Shown here piece after piece: positions 22,922-54,059 of a DNA stretch of 64,000 bases. Every line of letters starts with the position of its first letter. The stretch's first letter is position 1. This stretch comes from Isurus oxyrinchus (lineage: Eukaryota): contig JANJGN010000021.1 in the NCBI GenBank assembly GCA_026770705.1, positions 79,608,001 to 79,672,000 of the forward strand, in the 5' to 3' direction. A program made the position numbers and the translations under genes. The notes under the pieces are model-generated. The model worked only from the letters and a program-made list of their open reading frames with translations. It was not told the origin of the DNA and did not search any database.

Positions 22922-24284
22922 ACAAACCCACCGACTCCCACAGCTATCTCGACTACAGCTCCTCACACCCCGCTTCCTGTAAGGACTCCATCCCATTCTC
23001 TCAGTTCCTTCGCCTCCATCGCATCTGTTCCGATGATGCTACCTTCAAAAACAGTTCCTCTGACATGTCCTCCTTCTTCCTTAACCGAGGTTTTCCACCC
23101 ACGGTCGTTGACAGGGCCCTCAACCGTGTCCGGCCCATCTTCCGCGCATCCGCCCTCACGCCTTCTCCTCCCTCCCAGAAACATGATAGGGTCCCCCTTG
23201 TCCTCATTTATCACTCCACCAGCCTCCGCATTCAAAGGATCATCCTCCGCCATTTCTGCCAACTCCAGCATGATGCCACCACCAAACACATCTTCCCTTC
23301 ACCCCCCTTATCGGCATTCCGTAGGGTTCACTCCCTCCGGGACACCCTGGTCCACTCCTCCATCACCTCCTACTCCTCAATCCCCTCCTATGGCACCACC
23401 CCATGCCCACGCAAAAGATGTAACACCTGCCCCTTCACTTCCTCTCTCCTCCCCATCCAAGGGCCCAAACACTCCTTTCAAGTGAAGCAGCATTTCACTT
23501 GCATTTCCCCCAACTTAGTCTACTGCATTCGTTGCTCCCAATGTGGTCTCCTCTACATTGGAGAGACCAAACGTAAACTGGGCGACCGCTTTGCAGAACA
23601 CCTGCGGTCTGTCCGCAACAATGACCCAAACCTCCCTGTCGCTTGCCATTTTAACACTCCACCCTGCTCTCTTGCCCACATGTCTGTCCTTGGCTTGCTG
23701 CATTGTTCCAGTGAAGCCCAACGCAAACTGGAGGAACAACACTTCATCTTCCGACTAGGCACTTTACAGCCTTCCGGACTGAATATTGAATTCAACAACT
23801 TTAGGTCGTGAGCTCCCTCCCCCATCCCCACCCCCTTTCTGTTTCCCCCTTTCTTTTTTTTCTTTCCAATAAATTATAAAGATTTTCCTTCTCCCACCTA
23901 TTTCCATTATATAAAAAAAAACACCCCCACTAGAGCTGTACCTTGAGTGCCCTACCATCCATTCTTAATTAGCACATTCATTTAGATAATATCATCAACT
24001 TTAACTTTAACACCTATGTGTTCTATTGTACCATTGTCTTGACATCTTTTGATGATCTGCTTCTATCACTGCTTGTTTGTCCCTACAACCACACCCCCCC
24101 CCACTTCTCTCTCTCTCTCTCTCTCCGCCCCCCACACACACCTTAAACCAGCTTATATTTCAACTCTTTCTTGGACTCGAACTCAAGTTCTGTCGAAGAG
24201 TCATGAGGACTCGAAATGTCAACTCTTTTCTTCTCCGCCGATGTTGCCAGACCTGCTGAGTTTTTCCAGGTAATTCTGTTTTTG
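22922..24284 (+). mobile_element. Penelope-like element, 5'-truncated (RT thumb, Cys linker, intact GIY-YIG frame)
   Basis: PCPRKRCNTC...NLVYCIRCSQCGLLYIGETKRKLGDRFAEH...GLN; 15-bp TSD CTCCAAAATCACATT (22907-21, 24285-99). Confidence 0.95.
24186..24224 (+). ncRNA. Minimal hammerhead ribozyme motif (Penelope)
   Basis: AGTT-CTGTCGA-A-GAGTC-ATGAG-GACTC-GAAAT-GTC-AACT. Confidence 0.65.
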
Positions 24285-24302: not shown

Positions 24303-24344
24303 CCTAGCAACTGGTGACATATTGCAGTTGTGTAATTTCATTGG
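24303..24344 (+). promoter_or_regulatory. Orphan X1-X2-Y module (candidate distal enhancer), with its S box displaced by a Penelope insertion
   Basis: CCTAGCAACTGGTG(ACAT)-20nt-TTCATTGG. S-like AAACCTC lies at 22903-22909 on the far side of the insertion. Confidence 0.7.
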
Positions 24345-38400: not shown

Positions 38401-41400
38401 TGCACAAGAGAACTGAGAATCTGTAGACAGTGAGCTCAGAGGAGAAAGGGGATGTGCAAGGTGCTGACTGTACTAGACCTCCAAGCACACTCCCACCCTG
38501 TTCCAAAGGGTACTCAAATCCCAGCACTGTAGGGTCTTTTTGTCTAATGGTTAATGTTGTCACATCCTTTCCAAGTGATTATTACACAGGTCCCTGTGAA
38601 TGTGAGCTTAAAGGGACTGACTTCAGCATCCTCAGTGGAAGAGCTGTCATTATTACTATTACCTTCAACCATCTAATAAACTGCTCTGGGTTGGAAATGT
38701 GCATTACTGGATTTGATGGCATGAGAGAAATTGCCAATACTTTACACCGAAATAAGGAATTTCCAGCACTCATTAACCTATTCATCCAGCTATTTGAGCT
38801 GAGGGGTAATCATGGAGTGATTACAATAATTCCACCATGGGAATTTGGGGGACAGAGGAAAGGAGGAGCAGAGTGGGCTCACTGCAATTACAAGTTTAAA
38901 TTCTCAATGTTTACTGAGCTACCATTTCTAGTTAATCACAGGAAGGGATAGATGTTTGGTCCCTGCAGGATGTGTTGAGTAGCAGATGCTATCCCAGACA
39001 AAAATCAACCGTGGGAAATGTCTCCAACTGAGATTACTACAGCTTAAGATATCAGAGGGGGCTTTGGACACAATTGACATCACTATGCAGAATTCTGGAA
39101 CAAACATTTGAGAATATTCATTCCACTGAGATAGGGAGCAGACACTAGTAAGGGAGTGCAAGTTCACAGGTGGTCAAGGGAGGGATTATAGTGACACCTA
39201 AACCAAAAAACAAGGTTCAAGTGTTGGCAGGGGTAATTAATGATTCAGACAGGAATGCCGTAATAAGAAAACTTGATACTTAGAGTGGGTAGAACGATGG
39301 GCATCATTTGCAATCCAGATTTGGTGCTGTTGTCCCTTATCCTAGCTCCTAGGAGTCATTTTGTAAATATAATGGCCAGGGACAGCCACATGGAGCTACT
39401 GGAGATAGGAAAAGGCAGTTGTGAAGGATGGTAATCTCTGGATGCCAGCTATGATCCAGGATAGGAAGATCAGGAAGTTCAACATATGGCTAATTTTAAA
39501 ATTCTCTTTAATGGGATGTGGGTTGTGCTAGATAGGCCAGCATTTATTGCCCATCCCCAATTGCCCTTAAGGTGGTGAGCTACCTTCTTGAGCTGCTGCA
39601 ATCCACGTTGTGTAGGTACACCCAGTGTTGTTAGGGAGTGCCAGGATTTTGGCCCAACAGTGAAGGAACAGCAATATATTTCCAAGTCAGAATGGTGAGT
39701 GATTTGGAGGGGAACTTGCAGATGGCATTCCCATGTGTCTGCTGCCCTTGTCCTTCTAGATGGTAGTGGTCATGGGTTTGGAAGGTGCTGTTAAGGAGCC
39801 TTGGTGAGCTAGTGCTGTATATCTTGTAGATAGTGGCTGCTGCCACTGTCAGTGGATGGCAGAGACATTGAAGGGGGTGGAAGGGGTACCAATCAAGCTG
39901 GCTGCTTTGTCCGGGATGGTGTCAAGCGTCTTCTATTGCTGGAGCTGCACATCCAGGCAACTGGAGAGAAATGTTCTATTTAATGGGGTATTGACACTAG
40001 CTTTGGGAAGGATAGATAACACTTGAACAGGACAAGTGCTAATGAAATAGAGAAAAAATAAAAAGAATTATTTAAACCAACAAGAAAGCACAAGGAAAAT
40101 AAAACAATTCAGAATGAACAAAGGTTGTTCTAAATATAGATTTGGAAGTATAAATAGAAGGTAAGCATGCAATTTGCACAGTTTAGGTTTAAAAACTTAT
40201 TTAAAATGTTGCACATCAAATGGATCAAGTCATAAAATACTGGGTTTTATGGTCATAGATATCAAATATAAAAGCTGAGATGCAAGGGTTTGTGTTTAAA
40301 GCTCTACAACCCATTTGCAAAAGCTGTAGTATGTTATACTATGTCTCTTACCCCAGTCAACACTCCTGGGCTCATTCAGGCTGATGTGTTCCACGCGGCA
40401 GGTATATTTATCCCCAGACACTGGTTGATATTGGAGGAGTTCCTCCACTTGATAGGTCCAGTCACCATCTGATAACAGGGCAGTGTTGAGGACACTATCA
40501 GGAAGTGGCACACCATTTTTCAGCCACGTGACTTTGATTTTGGAAGGGTAAAATCCAGTGACACGACACGAGAGCAGGGCCGACTGTCCAGAATGTTGGG
40601 AGATTTTAGGTCGGACTGTGACTGTAGGTTTGACTGGAACAGAAAGAAAGAGGTAACTTTAGAATCCAAGAAAAGCAGAGTATAATGATAATAAATGATT
40701 TCTTTCATGTCTGATTCGCTCAGCCACTGATATCGGTCTACAGTTAATATCAGACAATATCCTTGTCTATAAGTTTCATTCTTAATTTTGATGAAGATCA
40801 ATCTATGGAAAAAAGGCAGGGATTTCCATTGACTAATGACAGATATATTGTAAACTATTTGCAGTACCAAATATTCACGGTGCAAAAACCTCTGCATAAC
40901 CCACACCAGGGAAGTGATGTTAGATTCACTGACTGCAGTCTACACTGGGCTGCACTACCTCCAAACTGAGATCCGTATTGTGTAACCAATTCTGCAGAAA
41001 CATTGGACTCTCATGGCCATGGTTTTATTTGGTTTAGATCTATTAAGTTGAGCAATTATCTTGAATAATAGGAAGCTAATGGGCTTCAGTAGGTTCAGTG
41101 CAACCAGTCTGGTTCCAATGCATTTGGCTGAACACTGAGCAGCACTGACATGGTTAACAGGAGGAGGCAGAGGTCTCTGGGTAACTCAGCAGCTAAACCT
41201 CCCAGGCCATCATCACAACTGGCCAATGCAATACTAGCAAGAGAGCAGGTCCTGGTAGCCACCAATTTATTGACACCTTGATGATAGAAAGGCCATCTTC
41301 AGATGCTGCAGAAGGTGCTAAGGAGCCAACCACATCCCAGGATCCCTCCCAAGGATCTGCCTTCCACTGGGGCAGCACAAGTGGAAATTAGAGACCTTCA

Positions 41401-44400
41401 CATTATCACCATGGGAGGAACCAAACCATTAAAGGCGTCTACCAAATAAACTAGGCCCATGGATTGAACCTTGGTGCTGCAGTTTGTTTCATCCCACATT
41501 ACTGTTTCAGGCTATAACTGAATATGTGGAGATGGGGGGGTGGGGGGGACAGTACTGGCACTGGGTAATACATGGGGGATGGAGACAGCAACAATAGTGC
41601 AGTATAATGGAGAATGTTAGACTAAGTCCCATAGAGGGTTGACTGTAATAGTCTGATGTCATGGAAAGAAGTGACAGACTCTGATCACAAGTGCAAGAGA
41701 AGGAGCATGAAAAGGAGCTAGTGTAGGGAATGCAGCAAGTCCTCACTAAGTCAGCCCACTTAGCATTGACTTTAATGCCATTTATTCTTGTGTCTTTTCA
41801 ATTTACATTGCCATTTAATGTTGTCTGCACCCATCCCCCAACCATGCTGCACTCTGGGCCAGCCACTGCCATGCTCTGATGCCAGAGACACCAGTCACCA
41901 GAGACCCAGGCTGTGGAGAGAGAGCAAGGCCTGAGATCTAGGAGCAGAAGTGCTTGGCTGGGATGGGGAAGCTGCCAGTCACCAATTGGTGATGAACTGC
42001 AAGTAACCCAGGCCAGCTGCAACCCCTCTGGCTTCTCCCACAACCTTCTGAAAACTGAGGAAGGGGTCCAGGCTGGAGGAGAGGGGCTTGGAAGTTGGAG
42101 AAATACAATTCCCACTGTTCTCCCCACCACTCCCAAAGAATCACTCAACAGCTTCTCCCCCTCATTCAAGCAACTCCTGCCCCATATCCAAGCTCACTCT
42201 GGCCCTCCCACTCCTTTGTACTTCTGTGAAACAGCTTCACCAGAATGTCAACCTCACCAGGCTGGGTAAAAAAAGTCAAAAATTTCCTTTTGGTAAATCT
42301 GGCATTACATAAAAGTACCCTTTTAAGACAACACATTGAAGATGGTAGGGCATTGAGGAGGCAGTTAATAAGGCATATAGTATCTTAGGCTTTAATAGGG
42401 GCATTGAGTACAGAGTAAGGAGGTCACGTTGAACTTATATAAGACACTAGTTATGCCTCATCTGGAGTACTGCATCCAGTTCTGGGCGCTGTACTGAGGA
42501 TGTGAAGACATTGGAGAGTGTACAGAGGAGATTCACAAGAGTGATTCCAGGCATAAAGAACTGTAGCTATGAGATAGATTGGAGGGGTTGGGCTTGTTTT
42601 CCTTAGAGAAGAAAGGAGGATGAGAGGAGACTTGATTGAGGTATTCAAGATCCTGAGGGTGTGGACAGGGGAAATAGTGAGAAACTGTTTCCACTCAAGA
42701 GCATCAAGAACTAGAGGGCACAGATTCAAAATAATTGGCAAAAGGAGTAAAAGTGATGCAAGGAAATTTTTTCATGCAAAGGGTGGCTGGAGTCTGGAAC
42801 AAACTTCAAGAGGGTGGTGGAGGCAGGTTCAATTGAGATATTCAAAAGGTTTGCTATCTGAAAAGAGAACATGCAAGGTTACAGAGATAAGGCAGGGGAG
42901 TGGAACCAGAGAGAATGCCCTTCTGAGTGCCAGTGCAGACATGGGTTGAAGGACCTTTTGCACTGTAAACGTTCTGATATGCTTTACCTTGGGAGCAAAA
43001 GTACTGCACATTGGGAACCACCTAACTAGCTAAACTGTTCTTCAAAAGCCAAAATGGACATGACAGGCCGAATGGCCTCCATCTGTGCTTTAACCATTCT
43101 ATGACTCAAGAACATGAATTGGAGTCAACAGGGGCCTGAAACAGCAATTTGACTTGTTTGAGCGCTCGGAGGAACATCCTAACCTCAACCCCACCCTCAT
43201 CAGCCACAATAACTTTGAAGAGGGGGCAGTGCGACACTGGAACAGAGCCCAAAGAGCCCTGCAGCAAGGGACGTACCAGAGAAATGTGCAAGAATATCCT
43301 CGAACGGAAGTGGGACAGTCGCAGGGGGCATGGGGAAAAGAGGGAGAAGAGTCACTCTGGGGCATAGGCCGTAGCCTCACTTCACAAAGGCCGTGACAGG
43401 GGGAATGCGGGTCAGCGTGGGGGTGGGACACAGGCCCCCGCTCCCCCCGGGTCAGCGTGGGGGGACGGGGGGGGGGACACAGGCCCCCGCTCCCCCCGGG
43501 TCAGCGTGGGGGGGGGGGGGGGGGGGGGGGGACACAGGCCCCCGCTCCCCCCGGGTCAGCGTGGGGGGGGGGGGGGGGGGGGGAGACACAGGCCCCCGCT
43601 CCCCCCGGGTCAGCGTGGGGGGGGGGGGGGGGGGGGGGACACAGGCCCCCGCTCCCCCCGGGTCAGCGTGGGGGGGGGGGGGGGACACAGGCCCCCGCTC
43701 CCCCCGGGTCAGCGTGGGGGGGGGGGGGGACACAGGCCCCCGCTCCCCCCGGGTCAGCGTGGGGGGGGGGGGGGACACAGGCCCCCGCTCCCCCCGGGTC
43801 AGCGTGGGGGGGGGGGGGGGACACAGGCCCCCGCTCCCCCCGGGTCAGCGTGGGGGGGGGGGGGGACACAGGCCCCCGCTCCCCCCGGGTCAGCGTGGGG
43901 GGGGGGGGGGGACACAGGCCCCCGCTCCCCCCGGGTCAGCGTGGGGGGGGGGGGGGGGGACACAGGCCCCCGCTCCCCCCGGGTCAGCGTGGGGGGGGGG
44001 GGGGACACAGGCCCCCGCTCCCCCCGGGTCAGCGTGGGCGGGGGGACACAGGCCCCCGCTCCCCCCGGGTCAGCGTGGGCGGGGGGACACAGGCCCCCGC
44101 TCCCCCCGTGGGGGGGGGGGGGGGGGGGACACAGGGCCTCCTGACATTCAGCACCGCTCCCCACCCGGTTGCAGAGGTGCCCGGTGACAGGGAGTGTCCG
44201 GTGGGTGGATGGTGCCGGCTTCCCCCGCCCCCGGTGCTGGGGGGGGGGGGGGGGGGGGGGGGGGCGGTGACAGACAGGTCACAGTGAGGGGCTTCCCCCA
44301 ACCCCCTCCCGGGTCTCACCTCCTCCACCCACCAGCTCCCCCCGGGTCTAACCTCCTCCACCCACCAGCTCCCCCCGGGTCTCACCTCCTCCACCCCCAC

Positions 44401-47400
44401 CCCCCCCCACCCACCCCCCCCGGGTCTCACCTCTCCGGGTCAGAACCTCACTCTCATAGATCGGAATGTTATTCTGACAGACGCCGATCGCTTCCTGGTA
44501 CGTCGCTTCCGCGCTCTCTTGATTCCATCTGTCCACATTACTCTTCGTCCAATCCTTCACCGCGATGTACTTCTTCTGGGCAAAGTCGAAATACACGATC
44601 AGCTCTTGATCATAGACAAACTGATAAATAGAGGTCCAGGTCCCGGTGCTGTTAAACTTACATCCGAAAATCCGGTTATAGGTGTGAGCCCCTGAGAGAG
44701 AGAGAGAGAGAGAGAGAGAGTTACTGACCGACACACCCGACCCCAGGGTGGGGATAAAATCCTCTGGTCCGAAGCGACTCCTTCACGGGGAGGGAAATCA
44801 AACTTCACTCGGGGCTCGGGGGCGGCGCAATTCGGGCAGCTCCCATTGCCGGGGGGGTGGGCTCAGCCTTCAAACCGGGCCCCGTCTCTAACCCAGCAGC
44901 AGGAAGGCGGAGGCCAGTCCCCAGCCCATCCCGAGGGGGCGGGGTGGGGGGGGTTGGGAACCGATCACTGCATCACTGGAAACTTGTGTTTCTCCCATTC
45001 ATTCAGTCTCGGCACCCGAGTCTCACTGATGCAGCAAGCATGCCAGCTACAACTGGAATGACAGCAGGAAATGGGCCATCCCACCCAAACCACAAATCCA
45101 AGTCGTTCTGCATTCTAAAGGGACCATTCCTTCCACAACACCCTGGTCCACTCCTCAATCACTCGTCCCCTTCCCACAGCACCTTTGCAAACACAGGAAA
45201 TGCAACACCAACCCTTCTCACCAAGGACCAAACTCCACTCCCAGCTGGATCAGCAATTTACTCTTTCAAATTAGTATATTGCACAATGTAGTCCTCTACA
45301 TGCCACCCAATCTGCATTTTATATCCCCAATGTTCCTTCTAATTGTCCCAACGTGTGGAATCAGTTTTGTGTACTCGACCAGAAAACAAAACTATTACCC
45401 AGATCAGGCCTGCACATGACTCCAGACCTACAGCAATGTAGTTGACTTGTAACTACTGAGCTCGCCTAGCAAGTCACCCAGTCGTCAAGGGGCAGCTCAC
45501 CACCACCTTCAAGGTGACTTAGGGATGGGCAATAAATGCTGGCCTAGCCAGTTACACCCACATCCTGTAAAAAAAAACTTAACTGTCTTTGGGATATCCT
45601 GAGATGTCCCAAGGTGCTACAAAATTGCAAATTCTTCGGAATGGTTACAGCACAGAAGGGGGTCATTCAGTCCACCATGCCTATGCTGGCTGCCTTCTTC
45701 AGCAACCCAGTTAGTCCCACTGTCCTGCCATTTCCCACACTTGAATTAGTCTCCACCATAATCCCAGACAGTGCATTCCAGATCTTACTTGCTGCAGAAA
45801 AAGCTTCACCACCTGTTGCCATTGGGTCTTTTGATAATCATCTTAAATCAGTGTCCTCCAGTTCCCAGCCTGCCCACCAATGGGAACAGATTCTGTGCCT
45901 TCCTCAGACCTGTTCAAAATGAGGGGGTCTATCAAATTGCCTCTAATATCTTCTCTTCTCCAAGGAGAAGAGCTCCAGCATCTGTCCACATAACCGAAGT
46001 CCCTCATCCCAGGAATCACTTGTAAATGGTGTTACTATGTACAGAAACTGAGGCAAATCTGCAGTGGAATGGGAGTTCTTCTAGTCAGGATTTTTGCAGG
46101 TATTTACATTGTTTGAGAAACCTTGTTGCCCTGCATAGCTAGTATTCCTTATGTTATTCATAGTTCTTATTGATTAAAACATGATTTACAGTTGAGGGTT
46201 TGCTGGTTGTGTATTATGTTTGAAGATTAATTGTTAGAGTTGACTATGTAATGGCAGAGTAGGATGCCCCATATTGCTGAAATACTTATTCCAGCCAACA
46301 CTACACCCTCAAGAAAACAAAATTAAGAGCTAAGAAGAGTCTCAATTGATCAAGCTTGTCATTACCTTGTCAATAACAATTAAATACTGTTTTCTGACAG
46401 CCATTTGGTTCTATAAAGGGAGGACGAGGCAACCATGGCTGACAAGGGAAGTCAGGGACAGCATAAAAGCTAAAGAGAAAGCATAAAATGCAGCGAAGAG
46501 CAGTGGAAAACCAGGAGATTGGGAAGCTTACAAAGGCCAACAGAGGACAACTAAAAAAGAAATGAGGGAGAAGATTAAATATAAGGGTAAACGAGCCAAT
46601 ATAAAATGAGTTTTTTTAAAGATATATAAAGGGTAAGAGGCAAAAGTGGACATTGGGCCACTGGAAAATGACACTGGAGAAGTAGTAGTGGGGAGCAAAG
46701 AAATGGCAGAGGAACTGAATAGGTACTTTGCACCAGTCTTCACAGCGGAAGATATGAGTGACATCTCCAAAGTTCAAGAGAGTTGGGGGGCAGAGGCGAG
46801 TATGGTGGCCATTACCAAGGAGAAGATGCTAGGAAAACTGAAAGGTCTGAAGGTGGATAACTCACCTGGGCCAGATGGATTACACCCCAGAGTTCTGAAG
46901 GAGATAGCTGAAGAGATAGTGGAGGCATTAGTGGTGATCTTTCAGGAATCACTGGAATCAGGGAGGGTTCCAGAGGACTGGAAAATTGCTAATGTAATCC
47001 CCCTGTTTAAGGAGGGAGTGAGGCAAAAGACAGGAAATTACAGGCAGATTAGCCTGACCTCGGTTGTTGGTAAGATTTTAGAGTCCATTATTAAGGATGA
47101 GATTTCAGAATACTTGGAAGTGCAAGGTAAAATAGGGCAAAGTCAGCATGATTGTCAAGGAGAGGTCATGCCTGACAAATCTGTTAGAATTCTTTGAGGA
47201 GGTAACAAGCAGGTTAGTCAAAGGAGAGCCAATGAATGTTATCTACTTGGACTTCCAGAAGGCCTTTGACAAGGTGCCACACAGGAGGCTGCTCAGTAAG
47301 ATAAGAGGCCATAGTGTTAGAGGCAAGGTACTAGCATGGATAGAAGATTGGCTGTCTGGCAGGAAGCAGAGAATGGGGGCAAGGGGGGTCCTTCTCAGGA

Positions 47401-50400: not shown

Positions 50401-52573
50401 GAATACTGGTGGAGGAATGAGGCTGCAGGGTCTGCCTTCCTTTCCAGTTAAGGTTCTGAAGGATTGGAAGTATCATAATATTAGTTGTTCCCCTCCTATT
50501 AATAAAACTATAATAATATAAGCTAGTCTCTAATGGTGACAGAAATCAGATTGTTGCAAAAACCCATCTAGGTCACTGATGTCCTTTAGGGAAGGAAATC
50601 TGCCATCCTTATTTGGTCTGGCCTACATGTGACTCCAGATTCACAGCAATGTGGTTGACTCTTAAGTGCCCTCTGAAATGGTCTAGCAAGCTACTCAGTT
50701 CAAGGGCAATTAGGGATGGGCAACAAATACTGGCCTTGCCATCAACACTCACATCCCATAGGAGAATTTAAAAAGTGACCCCCAACATACTACCTAAAGT
50801 TGCAATAGCTGGAGGGTCTTGCAGCTAAACAATTTCTAATATCAATATGGTAAAGTAATTGAAAAGTGATAATTCAGTGAAAAATAATAGTGAATACATC
50901 ACATGCATTTTACATCATATATACATTTTACATCATCTATACAAACAAAATTCAGGCTTACATAGATAAGCTAAAATTTAGTATCACTGGGCACTCCTAG
51001 GAGTAGGTACCATAACTTCACTACCAAACTTTACTATCCACTGGACTAGTAATTTAGAGGTCCAGGGCAATGCTCTGGCAACTTAGGTTCAAATCCCACT
51101 GCAGCAGCTGGTGGAATTTGAGTTCAGTTAATAATATCTAGAACATAAAGCTAGTTTCAGTATAGTATAGTGACCATGTCAATTGTCATAAAAACCCATC
51201 TGGTTCACTATCGTCTGTTAGGAAAAGAAATCTGCTGTCCTTACCTGGTCTGGCCCTCTGCAATGGCCTTGTAAGCCACTTAATTCAAGGGCACTTAGGG
51301 GTGGGCAACAAACCCATAGGCCTTGGCAGTGACATCCACATCCCATGAAAGAAAGAATTTTAAAAATCCACTTAAATAACTGTGTAACCATAAGATTTAT
51401 TTATTGAAAAAAAGTGACTTCCAGTTGTTCCAGAAGTTGTACTGATCAACCTATTATAAACTGTGAAACTTGGCTTTAATATTAGAGAACAGATTTCCAG
51501 TGAAATGCAATAAATTTCTTAGTCTGTCATAATCCAACAGCTAGCAATAACTCCACACTGCATGCTAGCTTTAATCTGAACCCTCAGCTTCTCACAGGGG
51601 TGGAGGTGGGGCAAGGAAAAAAAAAGACTTTCTGCCACTGTTCCAAGTATAGAATGCCCAAAATGGAGATAAGCAATTTAACAAGTAATATCCTGGCATG
51701 CCAATTAATTTGGCTCAAATATTAGAAATAGGCTCTGGTCAACATCATTGACCCTTAGTTCACTGAATCCAATTACAAACTACAAGCATCATTACTACTA
51801 AAAGCAAAACACAACAGATACTGAAATTGTCAAGTCAGATAACTCTGTTTCTCCCTCTACAGATGCTAACATTTCAGGCTGATGACTTTTCATCACAACT
51901 GGAAAAAGTTAGAGATGCAACAGGTTTTAAGTATGTCAGAGGCAGAGGAAGGAAACAAACACGAAAATGGTGGAAGGCAGGAGAGATTAAATGACAAGGA
52001 GGTAATGGTACAAGACAAACAAAGATTTTTAATAGGACAAATAAAGAAAGAAATATATAATACAAGCTCACTTATGCATGACAAATAAGTAAAAAATTTC
52101 AAACTTCACAATGGCACCAGACAATAGACCTTTCCTGGGCTCCTCAGTGAGGAAGAAGTGAGCAGAGATCGGGTGTGAGAATTTACACCTGTTCATCAGT
52201 AAAACCCATTTTTAAAAATCATTAAAAAAGAGTCAAGGTGAGGTTATTAGTAGCTGAGTACAGGAATGATCAGAGACAGCCCAAACCCCCTGACCCTTTA
52301 TCAGAGATAAGGTTATTACTGGGCTGGGGTTTCCCTGAAAAGCAGCAAGAGTCCTGGGAATGATCTCTGATAATTTTAATGGGTTTAACTGTCGGGTTTC
52401 CCACTGAGTTTAGTTTAATTCGGGTCTCTCTCCTCCCCACAGACTCTGACTCCCCCCGGGCGGCACTTACCAACCCCGTTGTCTCCCTGCCCATTGAAGA
52501 TGAGTGAGACGCATATGAAGAACGGGATCCTGAACCAGAGAGAACGGGGACCAATGACCCTGAACAGCGACAT
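35454..52573 (-). CDS. mhc2b: MHC class II beta chain gene, 6 coding exons: join(52573..52471,44691..44431,40633..40352,38262..38146,35974..35945,35479..35454), 272 aa
   Basis: Assembled by hand. All five introns are GT..AG and phase 1, and the frame is open from ATG to TAA. Domain order is leader, beta1, beta2 (IgC1), TM and two cytoplasmic exons, as expected for class II B genes. Confidence 0.96.
35945..35974 (-). CDS. mhc2b: MHC IIB exon 5 (cytoplasmic, AILDSSNHGP)
   Basis: 30-nt phase-1 exon between CTTTCCCTTTCAG| and |GTAAGT; keeps the frame. Confidence 0.82.
36005..36230 (+). mobile_element. DeuSINE-like (SacSINE1/AmnSINE-type) remnant in intron 4
   Basis: GACACTCCAGTGCAGTACTGTGGGAATGCTGCAC resembles the Deu-domain as I recall it. 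Confidence 0.55.
36710..37830 (-). mobile_element. LINE (second family), internally deleted, in intron 4
   Basis: Homologous to 25268-26900. Confidence 0.82.
38146..38262 (-). CDS. mhc2b: MHC IIB exon 4 (connecting peptide + transmembrane)
   Basis: EVQSTPESEKPKIIVGALGFGIGLIILLAGVIMKLKNAK, with the class II beta glycine-patterned TM. Splice sites are GCACAG| and |GTGAGA. Confidence 0.95.
39495..39970 (-). mobile_element. LINE 3' fragment in intron 3
   Basis: Homologous to the 3' part of 25268-26900. Confidence 0.8.
40352..40633 (-). CDS. mhc2b: MHC IIB exon 3 (beta2 Ig C1 domain)
   Basis: 282 nt: VKPTVTV...LLSCRVTGFYPSKIKVTWLKNG...DGDWTYQ...YTCRVEHISL...VDW. Acceptor is TTCCAG|; donor is |GTAAGA. 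Confidence 0.97.
42350..42980 (+). mobile_element. CR1-type LINE 3' fragment in intron 2
   Basis: MRGDLIEVFKIL..RTRGHRFK. Confidence 0.82.
43408..44135. repeat. GC-rich minisatellite, about 15 units of GACACAGGCCCCCGCTCCCCCCGGGTCAGCGT + G(n)
   Basis: Read directly; invariant core with variable poly-G spacers. Confidence 0.97.
44308..44435. repeat. 33-bp-type repeat that reiterates the exon 2 splice donor
   Basis: CCCGGGTCT(C/A)ACCTC occurs four times, the last copy being the real donor. Confidence 0.9.
44431..44691 (-). CDS. mhc2b: MHC IIB exon 2 (beta1 peptide-binding domain)
   Basis: GAHTYNRIFGCKFNSTGTW...DRWN...CQNNIPIYESEVLTRR has the C15-C79 pair, an NST glycosylation site, W61 and N82. 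Acceptor is (CT)nCAG; donor is G|GTGAGA. Confidence 0.97.
44694..44720. repeat. (GA)n microsatellite forming the polypyrimidine tract of the exon 2 acceptor
   Basis: Read directly. Confidence 0.95.
46410..48405 (+). mobile_element. CR1-type LINE, relatively young, in intron 1
   Basis: SPGPDGLHPRVLKE, YLDFQKAFDKVPH and KFADDTK motifs; few frameshifts. Confidence 0.92.
48900..49810 (-). mobile_element. LINE endonuclease-region remnant in intron 1
   Basis: Minus strand gives an APE-like GDFNV motif and the downstream linker region of the second LINE family. Confidence 0.6.
52471..52573 (-). CDS. mhc2b: MHC IIB exon 1 (leader): MSLFRVIGPRSLWFRIPFFICVSLIFNGQGDNGV
   Basis: Hydrophobic leader ending G|GTAAGT (phase 1). 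It lies just downstream of a TATA-like element and the CCAAT/X-box promoter. Confidence 0.88.
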
Positions 52574-52630
52574 TCCGAAGTAAGATCGAGAAGCAAACCC
52601 CGAACTGAAAGTGACAGAGAATGAGCGGGC

Positions 52631-52977
52631 TTTAAATAGGGAGCAAGTAAAGAGAGACCAATCAGAACTTGGCACAGAGTGACCAATCAGAGTCAGGTAA
52701 AGGGCGCTCAATCAGAACCAGGCACGCAACGACCAATCAGAGCAAGGAAAAAGGGTCGAATCCGCTCCAGGTAAAGAGAGACCAGCCAGAGAGAGGATAG
52801 AACGACCAATCAAAGTCCGGAGTTAGACTGCGGGGAGCCCAATTAAGGCCAGGCAATGGCCAGAGCGTGTCCAATTAAAGCCGAGGTATTGGCAGAAAGC
52901 GGCCAATCAATGCCGGCGGGTGGGAGGCGAAAGGTACCAATCAGGGCCGTAGAACACATTCGTCACCTGTTACCCGG
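52631..52977 (-). promoter_or_regulatory. MHC IIB proximal promoter: TATA-like element, CCAAT/Y-box array and X1-X2-Y module
   Basis: TATTTAAA at 52638-52631. Eight perfect ATTGG on the gene strand between 52658 and 52941. CCGGGTAACAGGTG (X1, overlapping TGACG X2), 19 bp, then CTGATTGG (Y). Confidence 0.85.
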
Positions 52978-53068
52978 CCGAAGTGAACCAGGGAATAAGA
53001 ATAAGAAACAAAAACAGAATTACCTGGAAAAACTCAGCAGGTCTGGCAGCATCGGCGGAGAAGAAAAG

Positions 53069-53107
53069 AGTTGACGTTTCGAGTCCTCATGACCCTTCCA
53101 CAGAACT
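53069..53107 (-). ncRNA. Minimal hammerhead ribozyme motif (Penelope)
   Basis: AGTT-CTGTGGA-A-GGGTC-ATGAG-GACTC-GAAAC-GTC-AACT. Confidence 0.65.
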
Positions 53108-53280
53108 GGGTGAGTCCAGGAAAGAGTTGAAATATAAGCTGGTTTAGGGGAGGGTTGGGGGGGGCGGTGGGCGGCGGAGAGAGATAGAAGTGGAGGGATT
53201 GGTGTGGTTGTAGGGACAAACAAGCAGTAACCCGCCCCCCTAAACCAGCTTATATTTCACCCCTTTCCTGGACTTACTCA

Positions 53281-53319
53281 AGTTCTGTCGAAGGGTCATG
53301 AGGACTCGAAACGTCAACT
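53281..53319 (+). ncRNA. Minimal hammerhead ribozyme motif (Penelope)
   Basis: AGTT-CTGTCGA-A-GGGTC-ATGAG-GACTC-GAAAC-GTC-AACT. Confidence 0.65.
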
Positions 53320-53438
53320 CTTTTCTTCTCCGCCGATGCTGCCGGACCTGCTGAGTTTTTCCAGGGAATAAGAACCTGTGATGACCCCGCTGTTGTAAGG
53401 CTCAAATAGACCACTCAGAGTTAGAACCGGACGACAAC

Positions 53439-53502
53439 CCAATTGTAGCCAGCCACAGCTAATCGTCATCTGTTGCCAGGCGGTTGGTTTATTTAAAGTT
53501 GC
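53439..53502 (-). promoter_or_regulatory. Second, upstream X1-X2-Y module of MHC IIB
   Basis: CCTGGCAACAGATG (13/14 to the HLA-DRA X box CCTAGCAACAGATG), TGACG X2 half-site, and ATTGG at the same distance as in DRA. Weak S-like GCAACTT 15 nt upstream. Confidence 0.8.
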
Positions 53503-54059
53503 CATGATGTGAATGATGGTTGGTGTTGGGTACGGGTTAGTGGGTGACAGGGAGACCACAATGTCCTATCCCCAGGAGTTGGGAAGCTGCACCAGGAGGA
53601 GAAATAATCAGGGGGCCAGTACCAGATTAATAACAACAACAAAAAACAATCCCACATTTTATATTTGACAATGATTTGGGAATTATATTGTTCATGTGTA
53701 TATACATACATACAGTCATATTCAAAATGCCACCATGTTATTACTTGGGTGCCTAGAAATCTAAAATGATCACAAAATGGACACAAATATTGCAGTTAAC
53801 ACAAATGTATTTCTTAGATCTTACCATGTGCTGTGGAATTACGTGTTGTTAATTCGGTACACACTGCACTGCAGTAGTGATTGATGTGGTGTGAAGGAAT
53901 AAGGGTCAAATAGTATAGAATTAATATAGGAATATTAGGTTAAAAGTTATTTTGGGTGAACTCACAGTAAAATATATTTTAACGGGTCAAAACTAACTTG
54001 CAAAAACAGCAAGGTTAGCACCCTTCACAACAATTTCTTTGTGTTCTATGGTTCTCGCC

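Follow-up and report, generated by a model that had tools for sequence, protein, structure and literature searches.

Among living lineages that possess MHC class II, the cartilaginous fishes are the oldest. In human class II genes the S-Y modules all lie 50-100 bp from the transcription start and typical TATA cores are lacking; in HLA-DRA, an unrelated spacer of 80 or 150 bp lowers activity, and the 150-bp spacer abolishes the normal start through nucleosome masking and shifts the start upstream (PMC2677874, in excerpt). NF-Y keeps promoters nucleosome-depleted, guards start-site choice and blocks ectopic starts (PMC6624317, in excerpt), and double NF-Y sites, which also occur in RFX5-bound regions, lie 24-28 or 35-37 bp apart, with none closer than 19 bp (PMC4889920, in excerpt); PMC2627899, PMC3730095 and PMC2278383 (all in excerpt) served as further background for the comparison. 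The literature searched (subscription papers lay outside its scope) yielded no description of a class II promoter from a cartilaginous fish. A 2019 review by Dijkstra and Yamaguchi of ancient features of the class II pathway may show fish promoter motifs, and may bear on novelty. The word 'promoter' is absent from the main text of PMC8010645, PMC4219347 and PMC9992475, and PMC6523485 mentions conserved promoter elements for teleosts only.

The promoter of a class II beta gene of Isurus oxyrinchus (B1) resembles the mammalian S-X-X2-Y module, for example that of HLA-DRA (PMC2677874 and PMC2278383, in excerpt), in having X1, X2 and an inverted Y in the same order and orientation, in an X1-Y distance of 19-20 bp (in both B1 modules and in alpha promoters) and in lying upstream of a class II gene. 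It differs in its distance from Y box to predicted start (about 330 bp against 50-100 bp), in ten extra CCAAT slots and in having a tandem X-Y pair and a TATA-like element, with no S box identified. With double and multiple CCAAT modules, including those of cell-cycle promoters, it shares same-strand boxes 24-25 bp apart in CpG-rich DNA, and RFX5 is among the factors found on the human modules (PMC4889920 and PMC3730095, in excerpt). Unlike these modules, B1 has eleven slots rather than two or three, a visible tandem-repeat origin and a coupling to X boxes and to an immune instead of a cell-cycle gene. Cetacean class II promoters also carry a regulatory motif duplicated locally in the proximal promoter, but as single duplications of 11-22 bp that include a T box, against some 250-300 bp of Y-box units in two shark paralogues (PMC6155461). 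The B1 promoter would thus combine the action of a class II S-X-Y promoter with that of an NF-Y platform of many CCAAT boxes.

The B1 promoter and its CCAAT array

The window, that is, the whole 64,000-nucleotide stretch that was analysed (C21:79,608,001-79,672,000, where C21 is contig JANJGN010000021.1 of assembly GCA_026770705.1), belongs to a genome of 4.98 Gb, whose class II sequence and repeat content point to a shark. A sequence-only reading had assigned the CCAAT array to a class II promoter, and the gene whose promoter holds it is indeed a class II beta gene, on the minus strand, recognised by its Pfam MHC_II_beta and C1-set domains, with exons 1-4 in frame and bounded by GT-AG sites (Table 1). 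B1 and a paralogue, B2, both read SDGDWTY, with D rather than N at what we presume, from the mammalian motif, to be position beta-150. D at beta-150 is a mark of the shark DBB lineage (PMC8010645, in excerpt), and by this residue both genes would be placed there. Window 43400-44430, where intron 2 begins right behind the peptide-binding exon, holds a G-rich minisatellite with about 12.6 copies of a 45-bp unit, together with a 33-bp repeat; the paralogue has related sequence at this place.

Read along the minus strand, the promoter runs X1, X2, Y, ten extra CCAAT slots, TATA-like octamer, initiator-like sites and ATG, the box names being those we take to fit the consensus motifs. X1, X2 and inverted Y stand in the expected fixed order and orientation in the B1 modules, and X and Y lie 19 bp apart in the proximal module, 20 bp in the distal one and 19 bp in three alpha promoters, the standard spacing being 19-20 bp. 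By eye, neither module has a match about 16 bp upstream of X1 to what we take to be the S consensus, and a scan of 52401-53600 returned no GAS-, ISRE- or NF-kB-like pattern in the form in which we take these motifs. The X-linked Y box is 303 bp from the TATA-like element, in agreement with the earlier estimate of about 300 bp, and 368 bp from the ATG. B1 thus has the order, orientation and spacing of a class II promoter but, measured to its predicted start, lacks the distance of 50-100 bp, and is a variant rather than an ordinary member of the class. The genome encodes an RFXAP domain (PF15289) and an NF-YA domain (PF02045), and a pattern derived from the B1 modules finds 15 genome matches, nine of them on C21, against none in a reversed control. 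The idea that B1 shares the array with an alpha gene lying head to head was rejected, since the alpha gene closest by has the same orientation and a promoter some 70 kb distant. About 14 kb beyond exon 4 and facing B1, an X-Y-like module with 20-bp spacing (window 24303-24344, plus strand) has an X box that is decayed in the paralogue's 87%-identical flank; we did not count it as part of the promoter, and it is possibly a distal enhancer or a chance match.

Table 1. Features of the B1 gene and its promoter (window coordinates unless a locus is named)
Feature	Position	Strand	Details
Exon 1, coding part, leader peptide	52471..52573	-	ATG at 52573
Exon 2, beta-1 domain	44431..44691	-	Pfam MHC_II_beta
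Exon 3, beta-2 domain	40352..40633	-	C1-set
Exon 4, connecting peptide and transmembrane segment	38146..38262	-	read from sequence
Predicted start region	52606..52612	-	matches to the initiator consensus; initiator-like A at 52612 (26 bp below TATA) and 52606 (32 bp below)
TATA-like element	52631..52638	-	octamer
Proximal array	52658..52810	-	7 slots, 24-25 bp period, 4 perfect and 3 decayed
Distal array	52839..52907	-	3 perfect CCAAT, 32-34 bp period; spacers without measurable mutual relation
Perfect CCAAT slots	52658, 52683, 52733, 52806, 52839, 52871, 52903, 52937	-	sequence
Mismatched slots	52708, 52757, 52782	-	two mismatches at 52782, one in each of the others; sequence
Y box of proximal X-Y module	52937..52944	-	inverted CCAAT, 19 bp below X1
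X2, presumably a CRE half-site	52961..52965	-	TGACG, kept in paralogue; sequence
X1 box of proximal module	52964..52977	-	RFX-type half-site, by the consensus we assume
14-bp direct repeat around Penelope-type fragment	52988-53001 and 53361-53374		
Young Penelope-type end fragment	53002..53374		373 bp, inverted arms, between the two X-Y modules; 14-bp direct repeat
Distal X'-X2'-Y' module	53439..53480	-	20-bp spacing
Penelope-type ends near X-Y modules	24186-24284, 53006-53107; L030:6222-6311; L094 (C21:98.955 Mb)		

The array (52631..52977) holds 11 CCAAT slots on one strand, eight of them perfect and all at the positions that the sequence-only reading had listed, with spacings in gene direction of 34, 32, 32, 33, 24, 25, 24, 25, 25 and 25 bp. 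This clustering is not chance: the densest 300 bp of the array contains eight same-strand boxes, against at most four anywhere else in the window, at most six in dinucleotide shuffles of the whole window (n=200) and at most four in shuffles of the 347-bp stretch itself (n=10,000). The full NF-Y consensus, RRCCAATSR, is matched by five of the 11 slots, and those at 52839 and 52871 are weaker CCAATTA sites. The stretch is CpG-rich (observed/expected 0.73 against 0.24 for the window), and adjacent slots are never less than 24 bp apart in the array of B1 or of B2. An analogy with cell-cycle promoters, drawn from the spacings, holds loosely: the main period of 24-25 bp falls in the 24-28 bp class of double NF-Y sites, while four of the ten B1 spacings (32-34 bp) lie between the reported peaks (PMC4889920, in excerpt).

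Tandem amplification of Y boxes had been proposed for the array as a whole. The seven proximal units share spacer sequence (identity 0.556 against 0.316 when shuffled, p = 5e-5), which shows an origin by tandem duplication, whereas the four distal units do not (0.356 against 0.300, p = 0.14). Since a Tandem Repeats Finder run did not report the array, the duplication is old. Derivation from an LTR or another repeat is not supported, a DNA search of the genome having returned the array itself as its one match (the search skipped common words and scored one candidate, and may miss old copies). Searching with the promoter DNA likewise turned up no further copy and missed even that of the paralogue, which was recognised through protein searches and its own DNA.

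Because an unrelated spacer in HLA-DRA cuts activity and the normal start (PMC2677874, in excerpt), the 300-bp gap in B1 needs an explanation. Taking this together with the work on NF-Y and on double sites (PMC6624317 and PMC4889920, in excerpt), we favour a reading to which we assign an even chance: NF-Y bound side by side on the ten extra slots keeps about 300 bp nucleosome-free, and the predicted X-Y complex starts transcription below the TATA-like element. NF-Y trimers would line the array, and once packed they would exclude nucleosomes and leave an open bridge from the enhanceosome to the core promoter. A predicted RFX/CREB/NF-Y/CIITA complex at the X-Y modules would then act on the TATA core 300 bp away, the promoter would depend on CIITA and its middle boxes would be under selection.

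The distal X'-X2'-Y' module was overlooked in the sequence-only reading; 35 of its 42 bases are the same in the paralogue, and it is better conserved than the proximal module. The Penelope-type fragment that separates the two carries a repeat that also ends elements with RT plus GIY-YIG inside the window, and without these 373 bp the two X boxes of B1 would be 130 bp apart. Two other loci (L002, L003) match window 52980-53050 over 71 identical bases, some 20 of them beyond the usual end of the repeat, and are possibly transduced or duplicated copies of the B1 insertion. Four of 20 X-Y modules have a young Penelope-type end no more than 120 bp upstream (gaps of 18, 28, 93 and 118 bp), against a background of 16 ends in the 359 kb of DNA examined (binomial P ~4e-6, or 1e-4 without the B1 copy, with the 120-bp limit set after the data had been viewed). 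Such elements may insert in germ-line chromatin held open by RFX and NF-Y.

Transcription start and array length in sequencing runs

None of the 24 runs listed is recorded as RNA, and the RNA labels used here are guesses; four runs (X6, X15, X18 and X21) were compared. If transcription began 50-100 bp downstream of the X-Y module, as is usual, most of the array would be 5' UTR. This agrees with the rule for all human class II genes (PMC2677874, in excerpt), with the lack of any ATG in the B1 array and with a 180-nt contig of depth 4.1 from run X15 (the window's species, RNA by guess), which covers 52702-52880 and has its upstream end 57 bp below the Y box. The X15 contig, however, has no partner on exon 1, and may be DNA or a minor upstream transcript. 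In run X18 (a related species, RNA by guess), a 288-nt contig with a depth of 1869 aligns over 52470-52592, begins near 52594 and leaves the window sequence at the exon 1 donor, its other 163 letters lying outside the alignment; there is no depth over 52628-52963. The X18 contig fits a spliced transcript starting just below the TATA-like element, but contigs cannot show a start. Since it begins below TATA, the array is probably not 5' UTR, and the retained TATA-like element, the initiator-like sites 26-32 bp below it and the four ATGs between Y box and start codon in the paralogue likewise stand against a transcribed array, which we regard as very improbable. A main start below the array, as opposed to a transcribed array, is thus suggested by this one deep contig, with the faint X15 contig in disagreement.

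Expression tuned by the number of units had also been envisaged. In run X6 (the same related species as X18) the array is covered by two allele-like contig sets with 2-10 differences each, and their lengths agree within 1 bp across the array, so that no unit was gained or lost there; this very small sample gives no sign of copy-number tuning. With about 4/100 of run X21 read, its raw reads hardly covered the unique part, so that no second individual of the window's species was seen.

Arrays in the paralogue and at unrelated loci

The genome contains two full beta-1 exons, those of B1 and B2 (C21:80.88 Mb), plus a fragment on C10, two alpha-1 exons and, near C21:80.31 Mb, the broken remains of alpha and beta promoters. 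The promoter of B2 has the same layout as that of B1 with largely diverged spacers, and blastn aligns little beyond exon 1. It carries an X'-Y' module with 20-bp spacing, followed by an X-Y module whose spacing of 17 bp is outside the 19-20 bp range. A separate Penelope-type insertion (244 bp, with a 9-bp flanking repeat) sits at a different place in B2 than in B1, and without it the two X boxes of B2 would be 142 bp apart. The B2 array consists of six perfect and two decayed slots (spacings 37, 24, 40, 32, 24, 25, 26 and 25), and its TATA-like element, a variant of the B1 octamer, lies 248 bp below Y, with one further box below TATA. By comparison, each of the three alpha promoters has one X-Y module, at 154-161 bp from its ATG, and they carry 0, 1 and 0 extra boxes. 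Seven extra same-strand boxes lie within 330 bp of the proximal module in B1 and again in B2, against 0-2 for the 18 others of the 20 X-Y modules that were examined (the three alpha promoters and 15 more). The array layout is therefore common to both intact beta genes and absent from the alpha promoters, a point that the sequence-only reading had missed.

The main and serious rival to an NF-Y-lined open bridge is neutral minisatellite growth of a unit with a Y box, by slippage or unequal crossing-over, with the middle boxes as passengers; in this account only the X-linked Y box and one or two TATA-side boxes would matter, and the X-Y modules would act as nearby enhancers. We consider neutral growth possible, if somewhat doubtful. 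The slots that have decayed (three of ten extra slots in B1, two of eight in B2) are the middle ones in both genes. A third, broken beta promoter retains the TATA octamer of B1 and the last CCAAT box. Of the seven substitutions in 52631-52977 among those listed for the related species, none falls in a perfect box, which is no significant avoidance (chance P = 0.42), seven changes giving the test no power. Against neutral growth, the spacers have diverged far beyond the boxes, both within the array and between paralogues, and seven extra boxes in B1 and six in B2 are still perfect between Y and TATA, even though exon 3 differs at ten of 40 four-fold sites and exon 1 at 38 of 103 aligned bases. 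Given this exon 3 divergence beside a 3' flank that is 87% identical, it is uncertain how old the split is. Over six aligned slots, 36 of 42 box bases are kept between B1 and B2 against 35 of 90 spacer bases, a contrast inflated by the anchoring of slots on boxes. Both genes have an intact X-linked Y box and intact copies of the two boxes that adjoin the TATA-like element, which fits the NF-Y bridge. In-register spacer homology gave p = 0.14 by permutation and 19/2000 by spacer shuffling, so unit-to-unit orthology of the two arrays is only weakly indicated.

CCAAT units have also grown in tandem elsewhere in the genome. Three CCAATCAG boxes at 24-25 bp have 716 genome matches, the first 100 of which fall at at least 12 loci; among six such loci inspected, five are CpG-poor and mostly homogeneous repeats. 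These arrays show that growth of this kind is not unique to B1, and we count them on the side of neutral growth. No enrichment of the 24-25 bp period is claimed, because the reversed controls swing from 10 to 497 and a few satellites dominate (24-25 bp, 716 matches against 10 reversed; 15-16 bp, five at four loci against 497 reversed). The decayed middle slots, the 17-bp proximal spacing of B2, the CCAAT arrays at other loci, the X15 contig inside the array and the weak in-register spacer homology all tell against the open NF-Y bridge.

At one of these loci (L119, C6:55.8745 Mb, minus strand), nine CCAAT boxes recur every 24-25 bp in a promoter that is CpG-rich; an exon matching UFL1 follows about 180 bp downstream, and a Penelope-type element lies directly upstream. 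This locus resembles B1 in its multi-CCAAT array of about 25 bp, its CpG-rich promoter setting and the Penelope-type element; it is unlike B1 in that its units are more homogeneous (0.76), its boxes have the opposite orientation relative to their gene, its spacer is unrelated, no X box was seen and the gene is not an immune one. This likeness speaks for the proposal that the array has made the B1 promoter an NF-Y/TATA one, largely independent of CIITA and with expression that is broad or tuned by copy number, a proposal also in line with a CpG-rich multi-CCAAT promoter that has a TATA-like element and with the drift of the paralogue's proximal X-Y spacing to 17 bp. We judge it improbable. Between B1 and B2, X'-Y' is 83% and X-Y 79% identical, against an identity of 70% in the array and 63% in exon 1, and X boxes better conserved than exon 1 would argue for continued dependence on CIITA; in addition, the alpha partners keep ordinary single X-Y promoters, and unit number is unchanged in the contigs of the related-species run. 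CIITA independence and a start near the module both fit less well than NF-Y bridging or neutral growth.

Several features of the wider class II region were noted. The broken pair (L057 and L062, C21:80.311-80.315 Mb) consists of alpha and beta promoters that face each other about 3.4 kb apart, the alpha promoter being followed by an exon 1 with a stop and the beta side being a promoter remnant. Directly 5' of the X'-Y' module of B2 lies a histone H2B-like pseudogene (L030:5330-5870, C21:80.878 Mb) with a stop near its start, a frameshift near its end and four ATTGG boxes upstream; no counterpart was found upstream of B1. Long tandem arrays of 35/70-bp period lie beside both alpha genes (L024 and L036, L032), and the two alpha loci share a 5.3-kb block at 97.9% identity although their sequences on either side agree at about 84-87%, which suggests recent gene conversion. 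A cluster of related X-Y promoters at C21:98.95-99.15 Mb (L094-L098), with one copy at C16:53.57 Mb (L089), precedes similar leader exons by about 200 bp in surroundings rich in C1-set exons; the genes are probably class I-like.

A beta-specific promoter design

The layout described here is an old, beta-specific promoter design, known from the sequences of one genome and one close relative. More speculatively, and with considerable doubt, we suggest an ancient shark beta design in which tandem X-Y enhanceosomes would drive a TATA core from a distance of 300-800 bp, over a selected lattice of closely packed NF-Y sites, and so escape the human 50-100 bp rule, with 25-bp CCAAT amplification as a recurrent route to long nucleosome-free promoters in the lineage. 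Should neutral growth be the true account, the array is a promoter minisatellite of local interest. B1 offers a natural promoter at three to six times the human distance, filled with NF-Y sites, on which it can be tested whether NF-Y arrays extend the open region. The presence of the array in the beta but not the alpha genes could mean that regulation differs between the alpha and beta chains in sharks.
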